In this document: piece after piece, positions 1,789 to 7,941 of the stretch
How the letters are laid out: each line of letters begins with the position of its first letter
How positions within the stretch are numbered: position 1 is the first letter of the stretch
DNA from: a virus
Lineage: Duplodnaviria; Heunggongvirae; Uroviricota; Caudoviricetes
DNA length: 8,601 nucleotides
Reading direction: 5' to 3' (one strand)
Virus record (IMG/VR): IMGVR_UViG_2700989489_000020
Notes under the pieces: model-generated
What the model saw: the letters and a program-made list of their open reading frames with translations, nothing else
Told to the model about the DNA's origin: nothing
The model's database searches: none
Program-made: the position numbers and the translations under genes

Positions 1789-1944
1789 TTACTCCTCAGG
1801 TTCGTAAGCTGTGAAGACAGCGACCTCCGTCTGGCCGGTTCGGATTCGTACCTCGCAGAGGTCTTTCCTCGTTACCAGTGCCGTCACTATGACGGTTAAA
1901 CAGATGACGATCAGGGCGATTAACATCGCCTTTTGCTGCTTCAT
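1789..1944 (-). CDS. hokD: Hok/Gef family type I toxin (51 aa), HokD/RelF-like
   Basis: Translation from the internal Met of ORF 1789..2001: MKQQKAMLIALIVICLTVIVTALVTRKDLCEVRIRTGQTEVAVFTAYEPEE, matching my recollection of HokD. AAGGAG 9 nt upstream of that ATG. Single TM segment plus conserved Cys. Confidence 0.85.
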   Translation of the reverse strand: MKQQKAMLIALIVICLTVIVTALVTRKDLCEVRIRTGQTEVAVFTAYEPEE

Positions 1945-2160: not shown

Positions 2161-2243
2161 AATGAATTCAGTTCACCTGGCGAGGCTTAGCGTACAATTT
2201 TTTCCGTTTTGTGAGCTGCCCCTACATGCCGCTGGCGCGGCAT

Positions 2244-2273
2244 CCGGAAAAAGAATCCACGTCCTGAAGGACG
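2244..2273 (-). terminator. Possible intrinsic terminator after the substrate-binding protein gene
   Basis: Short stem CGTCC-TTCA-GGACG directly after the TGA stop (2280-2282), followed on the minus strand by TGGATTCTTTTTCC. Stem is short, so weak. Confidence 0.35.
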
Positions 2274-2279
2274 AGGATG

Positions 2280-3038
2280 TCAAGTGCCTTTCCTGGTCCA
2301 GCCATATTTTTTGAATGCAGGCGCCGCTTCATCGGTTTGTAGCCATTCTGCAAATCGACGGGTTTCATCATTTGCATCCTGACGTACTGTAATGTTCATA
2401 TCACGCCATATCACGTAGTCTGGCGCTATTTCCACGACATCACCAATTTCTGGATTACTGGCTGCCCAGTCAGCCCAGGTTATCCAGACATCTGCTCCAG
2501 GCTGATTCTCAAGAGCCTTACGTGCAGTTCCGCTATTGGGCGCATATAAAATAATATTTTTTCGGATTGCGGCGACAGTTTCTATATTCCCTTTACGTCC
2601 GGCAATATCTTCCCAGACGCCAGTGCCTGATGTATTACTGGTACCACCACCATCATTAACAATTACGCCAATCCCAGGTCTGGTCAGGTCGTCAATACTC
2701 CGGATATTTTTAGGATTACCTTTCTTTACCAGTAAAATACTTTTTCGCAGATAAAGAGGCTGAATATCTTTTTCACTGAAGCTGTCTTTATGGTCCCGAA
2801 TGATAGCCAGAGCAGATTGTTCTGATGCGCCAAACAAGATATCTGCATTTTTTTTGGCATCTTCATTCCATTTGTTCTGTGGGCCGTAATGAACGTTCAC
2901 TATAATACCTGTTTTTTCGGCATAAAGTTTGGCTGCATCAAGCAAGGCTGTATGCGGGCCACCAGGACCATACAGATTGATATCAGCATAAGCAGCAGAA
3001 GACAGGAATATTAAAAAACCTGCCATTATGTTCCTCAT
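2280..3038 (-). CDS. Secreted periplasmic substrate-binding protein (ModA-like solute-binding fold), orphan cargo gene
   Basis: ORF track 252 aa. AAGGAG 7 nt upstream of the ATG at 3038. Sec-type signal peptide MRNIMAGFLIFLSSAAYA then DINLYG. C-terminal ...FKKYGWTRKGT resembles the ModA C-terminus from memory. Visibly AT-rich relative to neighbours. Confidence 0.75.
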   Translation of the reverse strand: MRNIMAGFLIFLSSAAYADINLYGPGGPHTALLDAAKLYAEKTGIIVNVHYGPQNKWNEDAKKNADILFGASEQSALAIIRDHKDSFSEKDIQPLYLRKSILLVKKGNPKNIRSIDDLTRPGIGVIVNDGGGTSNTSGTGVWEDIAGRKGNIETVAAIRKNIILYAPNSGTARKALENQPGADVWITWADWAASNPEIGDVVEIAPDYVIWRDMNITVRQDANDETRRFAEWLQTDEAAPAFKKYGWTRKGT

Positions 3039-3202
3039 AAAAAACTCCTTTTATTGGTTATCATGAAATAAAGTTATAAACACTACAAATAATATATATT
3101 ACATCCAGATAAACTTATCCGACTTTACCTCGTGCATAGCTTGTTATTTAAAGTCAACAAAATAAGGAAAATTATACGCATATTGAAGAGTATAAACCTT
3201 AC

Positions 3203-3230
3203 ATGTTGATTACATTTTTGTAATCAACAT
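3203..3230. promoter_or_regulatory. 28-bp palindrome ATGTTGATTACA-TTTT-TGTAATCAACAT upstream of the binding-protein gene
   Basis: Perfect 12-bp inverted arms, 4-bp spacer, inside the AT-rich leader about 165 bp upstream of the start at 3038. No U tract on either side, so not a classic terminator. Confidence 0.5.
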
Positions 3231-3289
3231 CCTGTTTGGAATAGCCAGCCTTTAATGGATAACTATTTCTGACAATGCAATGAGTATAA

Positions 3290-3897
3290 TCAAGTCCATC
3301 TTCCACTGAGAATTAGAGGCGGCATGCTTTTTCCGGCTCTTGCCGGATATCCGTAATTGTCCATAATCTGCAGATTTATACCTTCTGCATGACCTGTCAG
3401 CGAAAATTTGTCCGGTGTTTCTACGGGAATGACATCAAAAGTTACACGCACTCGCGTTACCGTGTAGACCTACTTTCCTGCACTTGCAAGATCACAGTGG
3501 TGTAACCGTAACAGGAATTTATTCTCTGGACCGGCAGTAAATCCCTGAGTGGCGTGGTTCCCATATCAATTTCCCGCCAGGCAGCCTCCATTGCCAGCGT
3601 ACAGGCTGGAGCCATGACCTGCCCTTTAAATCTGGCCCGACCATCCCACCGGACGTGTTCTTCTCCCCTGAACTTAGGTACAGTCATCTCCAGTGGCACA
3701 AAAGTGTCAGCGCCATAATTTTTGACCGTTATCGCGCTACGGATATTTTGTTGACTGGTGAAAATCACCCCGCAGAATCAGGCTTATTCCCTTAACCTGG
3801 GCTTTCATCCTGACCGCCGCCTCACTACGACCAATCAGACTGCCGATGCATTTTACCTTCATTGTTAGTATCATGATTTCAGGCCTGCACCATCCGC
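3290..3897 (-). pseudogene. Decayed coding region: protein-like minus-strand reading frames broken across three frames
   Basis: Minus strand gives a 42-aa stretch (MKVKCIGSLIGRSEAAVRMKAQVKGISLILRGDFHQSTKYP), ORF 3457..3768, then an unstarted open frame ...VTRVRVTFDVIPVETPDKFSLTGHAEGINLQIMDNYGYPARAGKSMPPLILSGRWT ending at 3290. No single intact ORF, no good RBS. Family not recognised. Confidence 0.3.
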
Positions 3898-6159: not shown

Positions 6160-6682
6160 ACGAACCCCTGGCAGACATTTGTTTATCTGCAAAGTAATAT
6201 TGGTATTGCTGACGATACGCGTGCTTGAAAGCAATAGCTTTTTCTATAAGCTCGTCAGTCTCACGTTCCACAACAACTGGATCCGCAAAAAGCAGCCCGG
6301 ACTCCACCACATCGCCATATTCTTTGTTTAACCCGGCGATCATGTACGTAATGCTTTTTCCGTCAGTAATTTCACAATACAATCTGAAATCGCTGATCCG
6401 GATAGCCTCCATAATTGCCGGAATCAGCGCCGTGAATTTGTCACGCTTATCTCTGGTGTCGATAGCTTTCCAGCGTTCGAATATCTTCACCCGGTTAACG
6501 CCCAGCGCCCGTTGATCAACCTCGCCATCATTAAACGTGACGCGTTGAACATCGATGTTCGGGCGTTCTTTCAGAGCCCAGAATGCTTCCGTGATTAATA
6601 TCGTCGCCTGCTCCTGTGTCATTCCTGGTCGGCATACCCAGGTATCCAGAGCCTCACAAACCTGTTCAGTGGTGATTTTCAT
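6131..6682 (-). CDS. YdaT-like protein in the cII position (183 aa)
   Basis: ORF track. Sits between the Cro-like gene and the initiator; overlaps the Cro-like stop by 17 nt and the initiator start by 29 nt. YdaT call rests on synteny with Rac racR-ydaS-ydaT and a loosely remembered motif. Confidence 0.55.
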   Translation of the reverse strand: MKITTEQVCEALDTWVCRPGMTQEQATILITEAFWALKERPNIDVQRVTFNDGEVDQRALGVNRVKIFERWKAIDTRDKRDKFTALIPAIMEAIRISDFRLYCEITDGKSITYMIAGLNKEYGDVVESGLLFADPVVVERETDELIEKAIAFKHAYRQQYQYYFADKQMSARGSYEYRCTTMG

Positions 6683-6893
6683 TGTTCAACCGCCCCGCCC
6701 GCTTTGCCTTACGATATTCGTCATAAACTTTGGGGTCGTACTGAAGTTCCCCGCCGGATGCCTCTTGCAGGCGCATCGCGCGACCTTCAGGAACCAGTTC
6801 CCCCCATGCAGCAACGCTTGCCAGCCTAACTCCTGCGACATTGGCAAGCTTTGTTTTGCTGCCAAAAAACGCTATAGCATCAATTTTCAACAT
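6666..6893 (-). CDS. Cro-like HTH regulator (P22 Cro / YdaS family)
   Basis: 75 aa. AAGGGG 6 nt upstream of the ATG. Core FFGSKTKLANVAGVRLASVAAWGELVPEGRAMRLQEASGGEL resembles P22 Cro from memory. Divergent from the repressor. Confidence 0.75.
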   Translation of the reverse strand: MLKIDAIAFFGSKTKLANVAGVRLASVAAWGELVPEGRAMRLQEASGGELQYDPKVYDEYRKAKRAGRLNNENHH

Positions 6894-6969
6894 ATCGAAC
6901 CCCTTAGATTTTCCTAAGGAAACTAGATCGTAGAGAAACCTAAGTCAAGAAAAATTAGAATTACCTAAT
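6894..6969. promoter_or_regulatory. Divergent control region with three 16-bp dyad operators and two back-to-back promoters
   Basis: Operators of form YTTAG-N6-CTAAR: CTTAGATTTTCCTAAG (6903-6918), CGTAGAGAAACCTAAG (6929-6944), ATTAGAATTACCTAAT (6954-6969), spaced 25-26 bp. Minus-strand promoter: TTGACT (plus 6943-6948), 17 bp, TAGTTT. Plus-strand -10 TAGAAT (6956-6961) ends 8 nt before the repressor ATG, with a poor -35. Confidence 0.6.
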
Positions 6970-7377
6970 ATGAAAAACGAAACCTTCGGTGCTCGCCTCT
7001 TATACAGGCGAAAAAAATTAAAACTGTCTCAGGCCGCATTAGGTAAGCTGGTCAAAGTGGCTCACGTAACAATTTCTCAATGGGAAAGAGATGAAACACA
7101 GCCAGCGGGGAAGAGATTATTCGCACTGAGCCAGGCGCTTCAGTGCTCGCCGACTTGGCTTCTTTTTGGAGATGAAGATAAGCAACCAGGCGAACCGATC
7201 CCAGATAATCAGCCAGTCAATCTGACAGAAGATCAAAAAGAGTTGCTTCAACTGTTCGACGCACTGCCTGAGTCAGAGCAAAAGGCTCTGTTGTCAGAGA
7301 TGCGTGCTCGAGTTGAGAATTTCAACAAACTTTTTGAAGAACTACTCAAAGCTCGCAAAAGAAGCGCAAATAAATAA
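6970..7377 (+). CDS. CI-like prophage repressor, XRE-family HTH, no S24 peptidase domain
   Basis: 135 aa. HTH in LSQAALGKLVKVAHVTISQWERDE. Too short for a LexA-like autocleavage domain and no such motif seen. No Shine-Dalgarno; apparently leaderless. Confidence 0.85.
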   Translation: MKNETFGARLLYRRKKLKLSQAALGKLVKVAHVTISQWERDETQPAGKRLFALSQALQCSPTWLLFGDEDKQPGEPIPDNQPVNLTEDQKELLQLFDALPESEQKALLSEMRARVENFNKLFEELLKARKRSANK

Positions 7378-7505: not shown

Positions 7506-7584
7506 CTACTCATCAAGACACCGCACGGTGTTCTCAGCAAACAGTTCCGCTACCCGGCGTTAAGGGGAAGCAGAGGATTTCTCA

Positions 7585-7941
7585 GTGGGCGAAGTCAAAC
7601 ATCAGAATGGAAGGCGTCCAGGGATCAGCAAAGAAACAGCGATGGCGCTTTATATTGATATCAGCGCCATTGCCGGACAGGTAAGAGTTATCAGAGCGGT
7701 AACTAAGCGGTATGCGCCTTTACTTCAGAAAGTCTCTGGTGAGTGCACCGAAGATATTGTCAACGATTTCGTCATCGAACTGCGAGGACTCATCTTCAGT
7801 TACAAGGTGACCACAATTTTTGCAGATGGCTCCCGCGAAACTGTCAGAGCCCTGCGGCTTAAAGGATGTGTCAAAGACTTAGCCACCACATTCTGGGCAA
7901 GAAAACTTGATTGTATTCATAACCAATTTCCTCTCGAGTAA
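7585..7941 (+). CDS. Hypothetical protein, first gene of the left operon (118 aa from GTG; alternative ATG at 7642)
   Basis: ORF track. GAGGA 7 nt upstream of the GTG at 7585. No recognisable family; no N-like arginine-rich motif. Confidence 0.5.
   Translation: MGEVKHQNGRRPGISKETAMALYIDISAIAGQVRVIRAVTKRYAPLLQKVSGECTEDIVNDFVIELRGLIFSYKVTTIFADGSRETVRALRLKGCVKDLATTFWARKLDCIHNQFPLE

Follow-up and report, generated by a model that had tools for sequence, protein, structure and literature searches.

A 28-bp palindrome upstream of the prophage-borne adherence gene paa/adfO contains a predicted HprR/CusR-type regulator box

What is a perfect palindrome doing upstream of an adherence gene that travels on a prophage? 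The question arises in IMG/VR virus record IMGVR_UViG_2700989489_000020 (Caudoviricetes), of which we analyzed one stretch of 8,601 nucleotides (nt), referred to here as the window. At positions 3203 to 3230 it reads ATGTTGATTACA-TTTT-TGTAATCAACAT, i.e., 28 bp with two perfect 12-bp arms around a 4-bp gap, exactly as the initial annotation had it. That annotation assigned the element to the leader of a binding-protein gene and suggested either a site for a dimeric regulator or a structured RNA. The gene is indeed of this type: it is paa (adfO), a member of the AcfC family with the SBP_bac_11 periplasmic binding-protein fold, which the literature describes as an adherence factor. paa/adfO is a widely used virulence marker of enterohemorrhagic (EHEC), enteropathogenic (EPEC), and porcine enterotoxigenic (ETEC) Escherichia coli. 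With 100% identity, the window matches the early-right region of a lambdoid prophage of EHEC O157, O26, O103, O111, O145, and others, which corresponds to Sp9 in O157 Sakai and to the CP-933O/OI-57 island in EDL933. For perfect inverted repeats whose arms reach 12 bp or more and whose loop does not exceed 10 nt, the expectation is 0.01 per dinucleotide shuffle of the 8.6-kb window, and just 0.04% of the shuffles of the local AT-rich 262 bp contained one. Since these expectations lie far below the observation, the palindrome is real and a chance event can be excluded. The palindrome, the gene, and the elements of its predicted promoter are located as follows.

3203 to 3230, no strand assigned: the 28-bp perfect palindrome, an exact sequence (shuffle expectation, 0.01 per window), with 12-bp arms unique to the EHEC prophage lineage.
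3208 to 3225, minus strand: predicted HprR/CusR-type box of 18 bp, GATTACAAAAATGTAATC in the paa sense, centered at about -52.5 and matching the published box at 15 of 18 positions; it corresponds to about 1,853,218 to 1,853,235 in EDL933 (NZ_CP008957.1) and to about 1,768,169 to 1,768,186 in Sakai (NC_002695.2).
3195 to 3203, minus strand: third hexamer plus GTT, a direct repeat, TGTAAGGTT in the paa sense, identical to the hiuH promoter at 9 of 9 positions.
3171 to 3176, minus strand: predicted -10 hexamer TATAAT, invariant in 10 close lineages, with a transcription start predicted near 3164 (Sakai about 1,768,230).
2280 to 3038, minus strand: paa/adfO, the gene that the predicted promoter would serve.

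The core of the palindrome is a near copy of a binding site known from the E. coli core genome. HprR (also YedW or HypW) and CusR have a published box, CATTACAAAATTGTAATG, located 87 to 70 bp before hiuH; HprS senses H2O2 and hypochlorous acid (HOCl), and CusS senses copper and silver (PMC9302797; bioRxiv 10.1101/2021.09.09.459708). We found that GATTACAAAAATGTAATC is identical to this box at 15 of its 18 positions. Both sites consist of inverted hexamers in a 6-4-6 arrangement, which upstream of paa are ATTACA (3219 to 3224) and TGTAAT (3209 to 3214), and both are followed after 5 nt by the same third element. Thus, the K-12 hprR-hiuH spacer contains the flank GAAACAGCCTGGTTC, the box ATTACAAAATTGTAAT, the spacer GCTGC, and TGTAAGGTT followed by ACC, and the region upstream of paa contains the homologous flank CCAAACAGGATGTTG, the box ATTACAAAAATGTAAT, the spacer CAACA, and TGTAAGGTT followed by TAT. 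The paa box differs from its hiuH counterpart by one central substitution of T to A and by an exchange of the outermost pair from C...G to G...C, and in the present lineage its arms are extended to 12 bp. Local alignment of the hiuH promoter with four paa lineages gave scores of 20 to 27, compared to a mean of 7.5 (standard deviation, 1.3) and maxima of 13 to 18 over 2,000 shuffles. Moreover, the 12 nt that precede the box in one plasmid lineage (L052), GAAACAGCCTGG, agree with hiuH throughout. The alignment scores and this identity of the flank suggest common descent of the two promoters. On these grounds we consider it likely that the palindrome contains a response-regulator site of the OmpR family, of the HprR/CusR type, at an activator-dependent paa promoter. 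The dimeric regulator site proposed in the initial annotation is thereby both supported and specified further, and the prediction builds on what we observed directly, namely, sequence identity, conservation, spacing, and homology to the hiuH promoter.

The position of the element bears on this assignment, since a leader lies downstream of the transcription start. The only conserved -10 hexamer upstream of paa is TATAAT at 3171 to 3176, which reads TATAGT, TATGAT, or TATAAT in the distant lineages, and from its position a start near 3164 is predicted. The palindrome would then extend from about -39 to -66, upstream of both the -10 and the predicted -35 positions and 165 to 192 bp upstream of the paa ATG, so its description as part of a leader is probably wrong. 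No -35 match was found at this promoter, the sequence at that position being AGGTTT, as expected for an activator-dependent promoter. Separated from the box by 5 nt on the promoter side, the third hexamer plus GTT occupies about -39 to -31. Read in the direction of paa, the whole unit is thus ATTACA-AAAA-TGTAAT, 5 nt, TGTAAGGTT, about 21 nt, and TATAAT. A -10-like hexamer is found 38 to 40 nt from the proximal hexamer in paa, hiuH, and cusC alike, the paa start being the predicted one.

We then compared the upstream regions of 13 paa lineages from a prophage, plasmids, and metagenomes, with Paa identities down to 69%. They comprise the present prophage, plasmids with Paa at 92 to 95%, Salmonella plasmid pSalMiami (88%), metagenome loci (86 to 87%), and a homologue adjacent to queF (69%). 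The conserved core reads ATTACA-N4-TGTAAT-N5-YGTAAGGTT, is asymmetric, and keeps a fixed spacing to the -10 hexamer. The frequency of the majority base was 0.98 for the 16-bp inverted pair and 0.93 for the third hexamer plus GTT, and it was 0.73 for the stretch down to the -10 and 0.50 for the 40 nt distal of the box. In all 13 lineages the -10 hexamer began 38 to 39 nt after the start of TGTAAT, and both motif and spacing were kept despite otherwise unalignable upstream regions in pSalMiami, the metagenome loci, and the homologue beside queF.

In contrast to this core, the 28-bp perfection is specific to one lineage: perfect arms are 12 bp long here, 9 to 10 bp in 2 plasmid lineages, and 6 bp in the 10 others. 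Conservation in the relatives is confined to the inner 6-bp arms and the arm proximal to paa. The distal outer arm, TTGAT in the window, reads TTA, TGC, TAC, GGT, CTC, CAC, or TAT elsewhere, and no compensatory change between the arms was detected across the aligned lineages. The outer arms, which give the element its length, are, as judged from the alignment, a lineage-specific extension of the putative box. The outer TTGAT/ATCAA motifs had been compared in the initial annotation to half-sites of the CRP/FNR family. The consensus sequences of these regulators are TGTGA-N6-TCACA (CRP) and TTGAT-N4-ATCAA (FNR). TTGAT and ATCAA are 12 bp apart in the palindrome, which is the wrong spacing, and the distal TTGAT is the very part that is not conserved, so this resemblance did not hold.

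The same alignment bears on a reading as a nucleic-acid structure, either an RNA hairpin acting as a terminator, insulator, or stabilizer of the early-right transcript or a DNA cruciform. In the window the hairpin is indeed stable, with a centroid energy of -13.8 kcal/mol and z = -3.8 on the paa strand and z = -4.6 on the other, and a module resembling a moron might benefit from an insulating terminator at its upstream edge. In homologous promoters, however, the hairpin is lost (z = -0.3 and 0.1, i.e., at the level of shuffles), and the changes in the distal arm are uncompensated. Neither strand carries a U tract, as had already been remarked for this element. Only 2 of the 12 pairs of the stem are G-C, and a terminator scan found nothing at the site, on which grounds an intrinsic terminator was rejected. 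There is no Rfam match at the palindrome: in Rfam 15 only sok (1942 to 2091) passes the gathering score, and the matches within 2950 to 3350 are at chance level (E > 1). Unconserved arms, a lost hairpin, and the missing U tract argue against an RNA structure and also against a symmetric 12+12 operator, and we regard a structural role as very improbable. Thus, of the reading given in the initial annotation, the regulator site is supported, and the leader, the CRP/FNR resemblance, and the RNA element are not. The pattern of conservation instead points to an asymmetric, promoter-linked protein site.

Conservation also speaks to whether such a site would still be used. The paa promoter could be an evolutionary relic, descended from a hiuH-like promoter, with a site that is unbound or without effect and with paa expressed constitutively or from another promoter nearer the gene. 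The flank homology of GAAACAGCCTGG points to common descent and not only to convergence, the predicted 5' untranslated region exceeds those of hiuH and cusC by about 100 nt, and other conserved blocks are found between the -10 hexamer and the ATG. In addition, one plasmid lineage (L057) has a 1-nt insertion in the box spacer, and one prophage copy (L180) has a presumed insertion sequence (IS) between the box and the -10. However, the box and the third hexamer are near invariant while their flanks are conserved at 50 to 73%, and this includes the 69% homologue in another setting. Had the box been a neutral relic, it would have decayed as the distal arm has, and we therefore consider this explanation unlikely.

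The two variant copies are of interest in themselves. L057 (E. coli plasmid pEsST2350_SE_2, about 2810 to 2830) reads ATTACA-AAAAA-TGTAAT with a 5-nt spacer, and metagenome copies from the same lineage, L079 to L081, have the usual 4 nt. L057 may be viewed as a natural spacing mutant in which dimer binding should be weakened. Just upstream of the -10 hexamer, the paa promoter of L180 (IMG/VR 2698536348_000010, 7555 to 7648) gives way to the unrelated sequence TGAACCGCCCCGGGTTTCCTGG.... The replacing sequence looks like the inverted-repeat end of an IS3-family, IS629-type element. If it is such an insertion, the box is split from the -10, and paa should be uncoupled from the box.

Under the predicted HprR/CusR-type control, a dimer of phosphorylated HprR and/or CusR would bind the inverted hexamers centered near -52, with the third hexamer occupying the -35 region in place of a recognizable -35. 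The regulator would recruit RNA polymerase to a promoter that has a perfect -10 and lacks a -35. Since HprS senses H2O2 and HOCl and CusS senses copper and silver, the scheme predicts that oxidant or copper stress, such as that of the inflamed gut, would induce paa. On prophages and plasmids alike, the promoter would move with paa and use the regulators of the core genome. In favor of such a role, HprR is described as functional in EHEC O157:H7, where it is needed for adherence and binds the hiuH promoter (PMC13064566). Inferred in this scheme are the binding of a protein, the position of the transcription start, the direction of regulation (activation rather than repression), and the identity of the dominant regulator.

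The cusC promoter provides a second point of comparison. HprR and CusR are reported to share one recognition sequence, for which their affinities differ, and to have essentially two targets in K-12. The positions common to the hiuH and cusC boxes are ATnACAAnnTTGTnAT, and the paa box has 13 of these 14. The 18-bp form of the CusR box of cusC is AATGACAATTTTGTCATT, and in the cusR-cusC spacer the box as published, AAAATGACAATTTTGTCATTTT, is followed by TC TGTCAC, the same three-hexamer layout as in paa. This layout is our own observation from the two K-12 promoters and was not found as a published definition. The cusRS-cusCFBA box AAAATGACAAnnTTGTCATTTT and plasmid-borne pcoE also resemble paa in having a long-armed perfect palindrome with a direct repeat 5 nt downstream, and they differ from it in the hexamer (TGTCAT versus TGTAAT).

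A further parallel comes from Pseudomonas, in which a site quoted as the palindrome ATTCATnnATGTAAT is bound by CusR, CopR, and CzcR with different outputs (PMC11195947). It has the half-site ATGTAAT in common with paa. As printed, ATTCATnnATGTAAT is not self-complementary, and the quoted mutant ATTACATnnATAGCCT suggests that the wild type reads ATTACATnnATGTAAT (PMC11195947). If so, the paa core ATTACAAAAATGTAAT would differ from it at one specified position. Such sharing of one site by paralogous response regulators could serve as a model for cross-regulation by HprR and CusR at paa, with the difference that the Pseudomonas site is in another genus and in copper-resistance operons and that no adhesin-type cargo is involved.

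Could another regulator with TGTAA repeats read the same bases? Candidates are CpxR, cross-binding by PhoB, and plasmid-encoded PcoR or SilR, or else an A-tract acting as a UP-like element. GTAAT-N6-GTAAG in the paa promoter fits the loose CpxR consensus (GTAAA-N4-8-GTAAA), PhoB occupied both boxes, at cusR/cusC and yedW/yedX, in chromatin immunoprecipitation (ChIP)-chip, and an A-tract is present at about -54 to -51. However, in AT-rich DNA the CpxR consensus is a degenerate one, and the third hexamer is TGTCAG in two paa lineages (L056 and L079), so that the second repeat there is GTCAG. The hiuH match, which extends over three identically spaced elements and 25 of their 26 specified positions, is far more specific and explains the same bases better. 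We therefore judge a different regulator or an UP-like element to be distinctly unlikely.

Other candidates were rejected by comparison with consensus sequences. CRP/FNR, Fur, Fis, IHF, LexA, TyrR, ArgR, and LacI-family sites gave a partial match or none, the hiuH match being preferred; the outcome was likewise a partial match or none for ArcA, PhoP, PmrA, KdpE, RstA, GadE, toxbox/Rns, and P2 Ogr-type dyads. Fur is moreover excluded experimentally, since published data indicate that it does not regulate paa. Beyond this negative result, the only expression datum found is a transient rise of ECs1772 (paa) in early stationary phase, which is uninformative here, and we found no other published account of paa regulation. 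Nor did we find literature that connects HprR, CusR, or YedW to paa or to genes of the AcfC family. We thus class the locus as a new predicted HprR/CusR-box promoter, i.e., a predicted further case of a known promoter type.

Several observations weigh against HprR/CusR control of paa. The central substitution noted above, TTGT to ATGT in the promoter-proximal half, is a departure from both E. coli boxes. The paa box lies 187 to 170 bp before the ATG, 100 bp farther than in hiuH or cusC, which implies either an unusually long 5' untranslated region of about 126 nt or another, gene-proximal promoter. The box is absent upstream of several other Paa-homologue lineages, whose upstream regions are unrelated. 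We found no regulator or kinase gene beside paa in any of the settings examined, which were the prophage, 15 plasmid contexts, and the metagenome loci L078 and L085. In the "type-A" organization of single-target regulators, the box is located in the divergent spacer beside the regulator/kinase operon (PMC8249747). In this respect paa differs from both hiuH and cusC, as two-component genes are not adjacent to it in the contexts examined. HprR of K-12 is reported to have a lower affinity for the hiuH-type box than for the cusC box. Systematic evolution of ligands by exponential enrichment (SELEX) with K-12 gives no reason to expect a third target, although K-12 lacks paa. Finally, the one EHEC study with ChIP-sequencing and RNA-sequencing of HprR makes no mention of paa in its text (PMC13064566).

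The boundaries of the sequence around this promoter involve two further features.

3240 to 3243, no strand assigned: junction between the mobile paa module (about 2195 to 3242) and a 3'-truncated fimbrial gene, with plasmid paa copies matching the window up to about 3224 to 3242 and fimbrial homologues from 3240 onward.
3243 to 3732, minus strand: decayed fimbrial-subunit pseudogene (frameshifts, stops, 3' end truncated), outside the regulatory element.

The minus-strand order in the window is a cro/DicC-like gene, a ydaT-like gene, replication genes, a DUF1627 pseudogene, the fimbrial-subunit pseudogene, paa, the hokD/sok locus, nin-type genes, and Q. Plasmid-borne paa genes (86 to 90% DNA identity) match the window from just past the paa stop to 3224 to 3242. 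These matches span the upstream region and the palindrome, which is thus part of a mobile paa module of about 1 kb, 10 to 13 bp inside its distal edge. For intact fimbrial homologues (88% identity) the similarity to the window begins only at 3240, and the intact gene has 13 further codons, DYYAALRFKLDYE, that are absent from the pseudogene. RefSeq annotates a "fimbrial protein" pseudogene on the minus strand at 3199 to 3732, i.e., across the palindrome. Because the match to intact homologues stops at 3240 to 3243, the tail from 3199 to 3240 is, by this comparison, read-through into the paa promoter, an annotation artifact by which the pseudogene call extends spuriously into that promoter. A role of the palindrome as C-terminal coding sequence of the fimbrial gene was rejected on account of the same junction.

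On the other side, the hok/sok homology of prophages without paa stops at about 2110 to 2178, and the paa module therefore has the appearance of a moron that entered between the replication genes and hok. IncF and IncI plasmids from E. coli, E. albertii, and Shigella carry this module too, frequently at a position directly downstream of the IncFII replicon, and related paa alleles are on Salmonella plasmids. As with phage morons, paa has its own promoter and a downstream hairpin, lies between the replication genes and hok/sok-nin-Q, is transcribed in the early-right direction, and recurs as a unit of about 1 kb on IncF and IncI plasmids. Unlike morons, its promoter appears to be wired to a specific two-component system of the host, and the unit came along with a fragment of a fimbrial operon.

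The proximity of the palindrome to this boundary could also be explained if it were a recombination site or the end of a mobile element. A length of 28 bp fits the core sites of serine recombinases and of Xer, and the geometry resembles res site I (12-4-12) or dif (11-6-11). Such a site would account for a module boundary only 10 to 13 bp away, for the divergence of five to six genomic contexts within about 20 bp distal of the box, and for the truncated genes that adjoin the module, fimbrial here and a Tn3-family tnpA in L064. However, the outer arm positions that such enzymes would read are not conserved, and no accessory sites or cognate recombinase are consistently linked to the module, whose downstream boundary is variable among contexts. 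Resolvase, Xer, Tus/Ter, and IS-end interpretations of the boundary found no support. Homology to the hiuH promoter ends at the shared boundary as well, which makes retention of a complete promoter the simpler explanation, and a recombination site appears hardly credible to us.

The distribution of the element agrees with its membership in the paa module. A search for other copies, proposed in the initial annotation, found the element in 608 of 5,426 complete E. coli genomes, at a median of one place per genome, and paa adjoins it at every E. coli locus inspected. It is at least 99% identical over 61 bp in 575 records, including O157, O26, O103, O111, and O145 strains. No second copy was found inside the window, even with 3 mismatches allowed, and a search for TTGATTACANNNNTGTAATCAA in 185,579 reference genomes gave 45 matches in unrelated taxa, none in Enterobacteriaceae, which is about the level of chance. 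The element is therefore single copy and travels with paa; it is not a repeat family, which also counts against a recombination site.

If the HprR/CusR-type box is used wherever paa has been carried, then paa/adfO and its plasmid alleles in E. coli, E. albertii, Shigella, and Salmonella would be a mobile third target of these regulators, with a promoter derived from a hiuH-like one and located, unlike that of hiuH, in a prophage or plasmid module outside the core genome and away from the divergent regulator operon. To this broader proposal we give an even chance. The box assignment itself yields a concrete prediction for paa, namely, control by HprR/CusR through a defined 18-bp box. Were this prediction correct, a natural, horizontally transferred target would be added to two regulators with nearly single targets, and a colonization factor would be linked to the sensing of inflammation-derived oxidants and copper. 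It would also illustrate in a concrete case how a moron or plasmid cargo gene can bring a promoter already wired to a two-component system of the core genome. Under the broader proposal, new hosts with HprSR/CusSR would express Paa upon exposure to neutrophil-derived HOCl/H2O2 or host copper. Such control could explain part of the adherence defect of EHEC hprR mutants, and it would place Paa functionally with the periplasmic response to oxidants and copper (HiuH-MsrPQ and CusCFBA) and not with the classical adhesins.

The plasmid contexts of paa showed some further features. In several IncFII plasmids paa is located about 880 bp downstream of repA. In L051 (pCFS3246-1) it lies about 1 kb from the IS1-flanked heat-stable enterotoxin gene sta1, and in L064 (E. 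coli J2 plasmid p3) the truncated Tn3-family tnpA is found beyond the box. In L052 and L053 (IncF plasmids pE105-3 and pSTEC299_1; L052, 4437 to 5859) genes for a YncE-like beta-propeller and a DUF305 protein are located upstream of the paa box in the same direction. This context may be closer to the ancestral one, as its box flank (GAAACAGCCTGG) is the most hiuH-like. In an unrelated metagenomic viral contig (L192, IMG/VR 3300028029_000055, 9343 to 9436, minus strand) we observed a hiuH-type box with a third hexamer (CATTACAATATTGTAATCAATCTGTAAGG), and other mobile genes may employ this promoter type.

Immediately downstream of the paa module is the toxin gene hokD (1789 to 1944, minus strand), which is probably the "ckf" paired with adfO in the literature. 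Its antitoxin RNA sok is full length (Rfam RF01794, 1942 to 2091, minus strand, 103.9 bits). The window contains two perfect inverted repeats of the class defined above; the second, CCGATATGGGAATTCCCATATCGG at 2137 to 2160, has 12-bp arms without a gap and a central EcoRI site, with the hok/sok locus on one side of it and the downstream end of the paa module on the other. Because some prophages without paa match the window up to about 2178, this second repeat may be part of the hok-locus flank rather than of the paa module. The immunity region at 6666 to 7377, in which no sequence like the 3203 to 3230 palindrome was found, encodes a repressor-like helix-turn-helix protein of 135 amino acids on the plus strand and a Cro/CI-family protein of 75 amino acids on the minus strand. 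This pair resembles DicA/DicC of the Qin prophage. In the O103 copy of the prophage (L001), ydfC and dicB are annotated further on.

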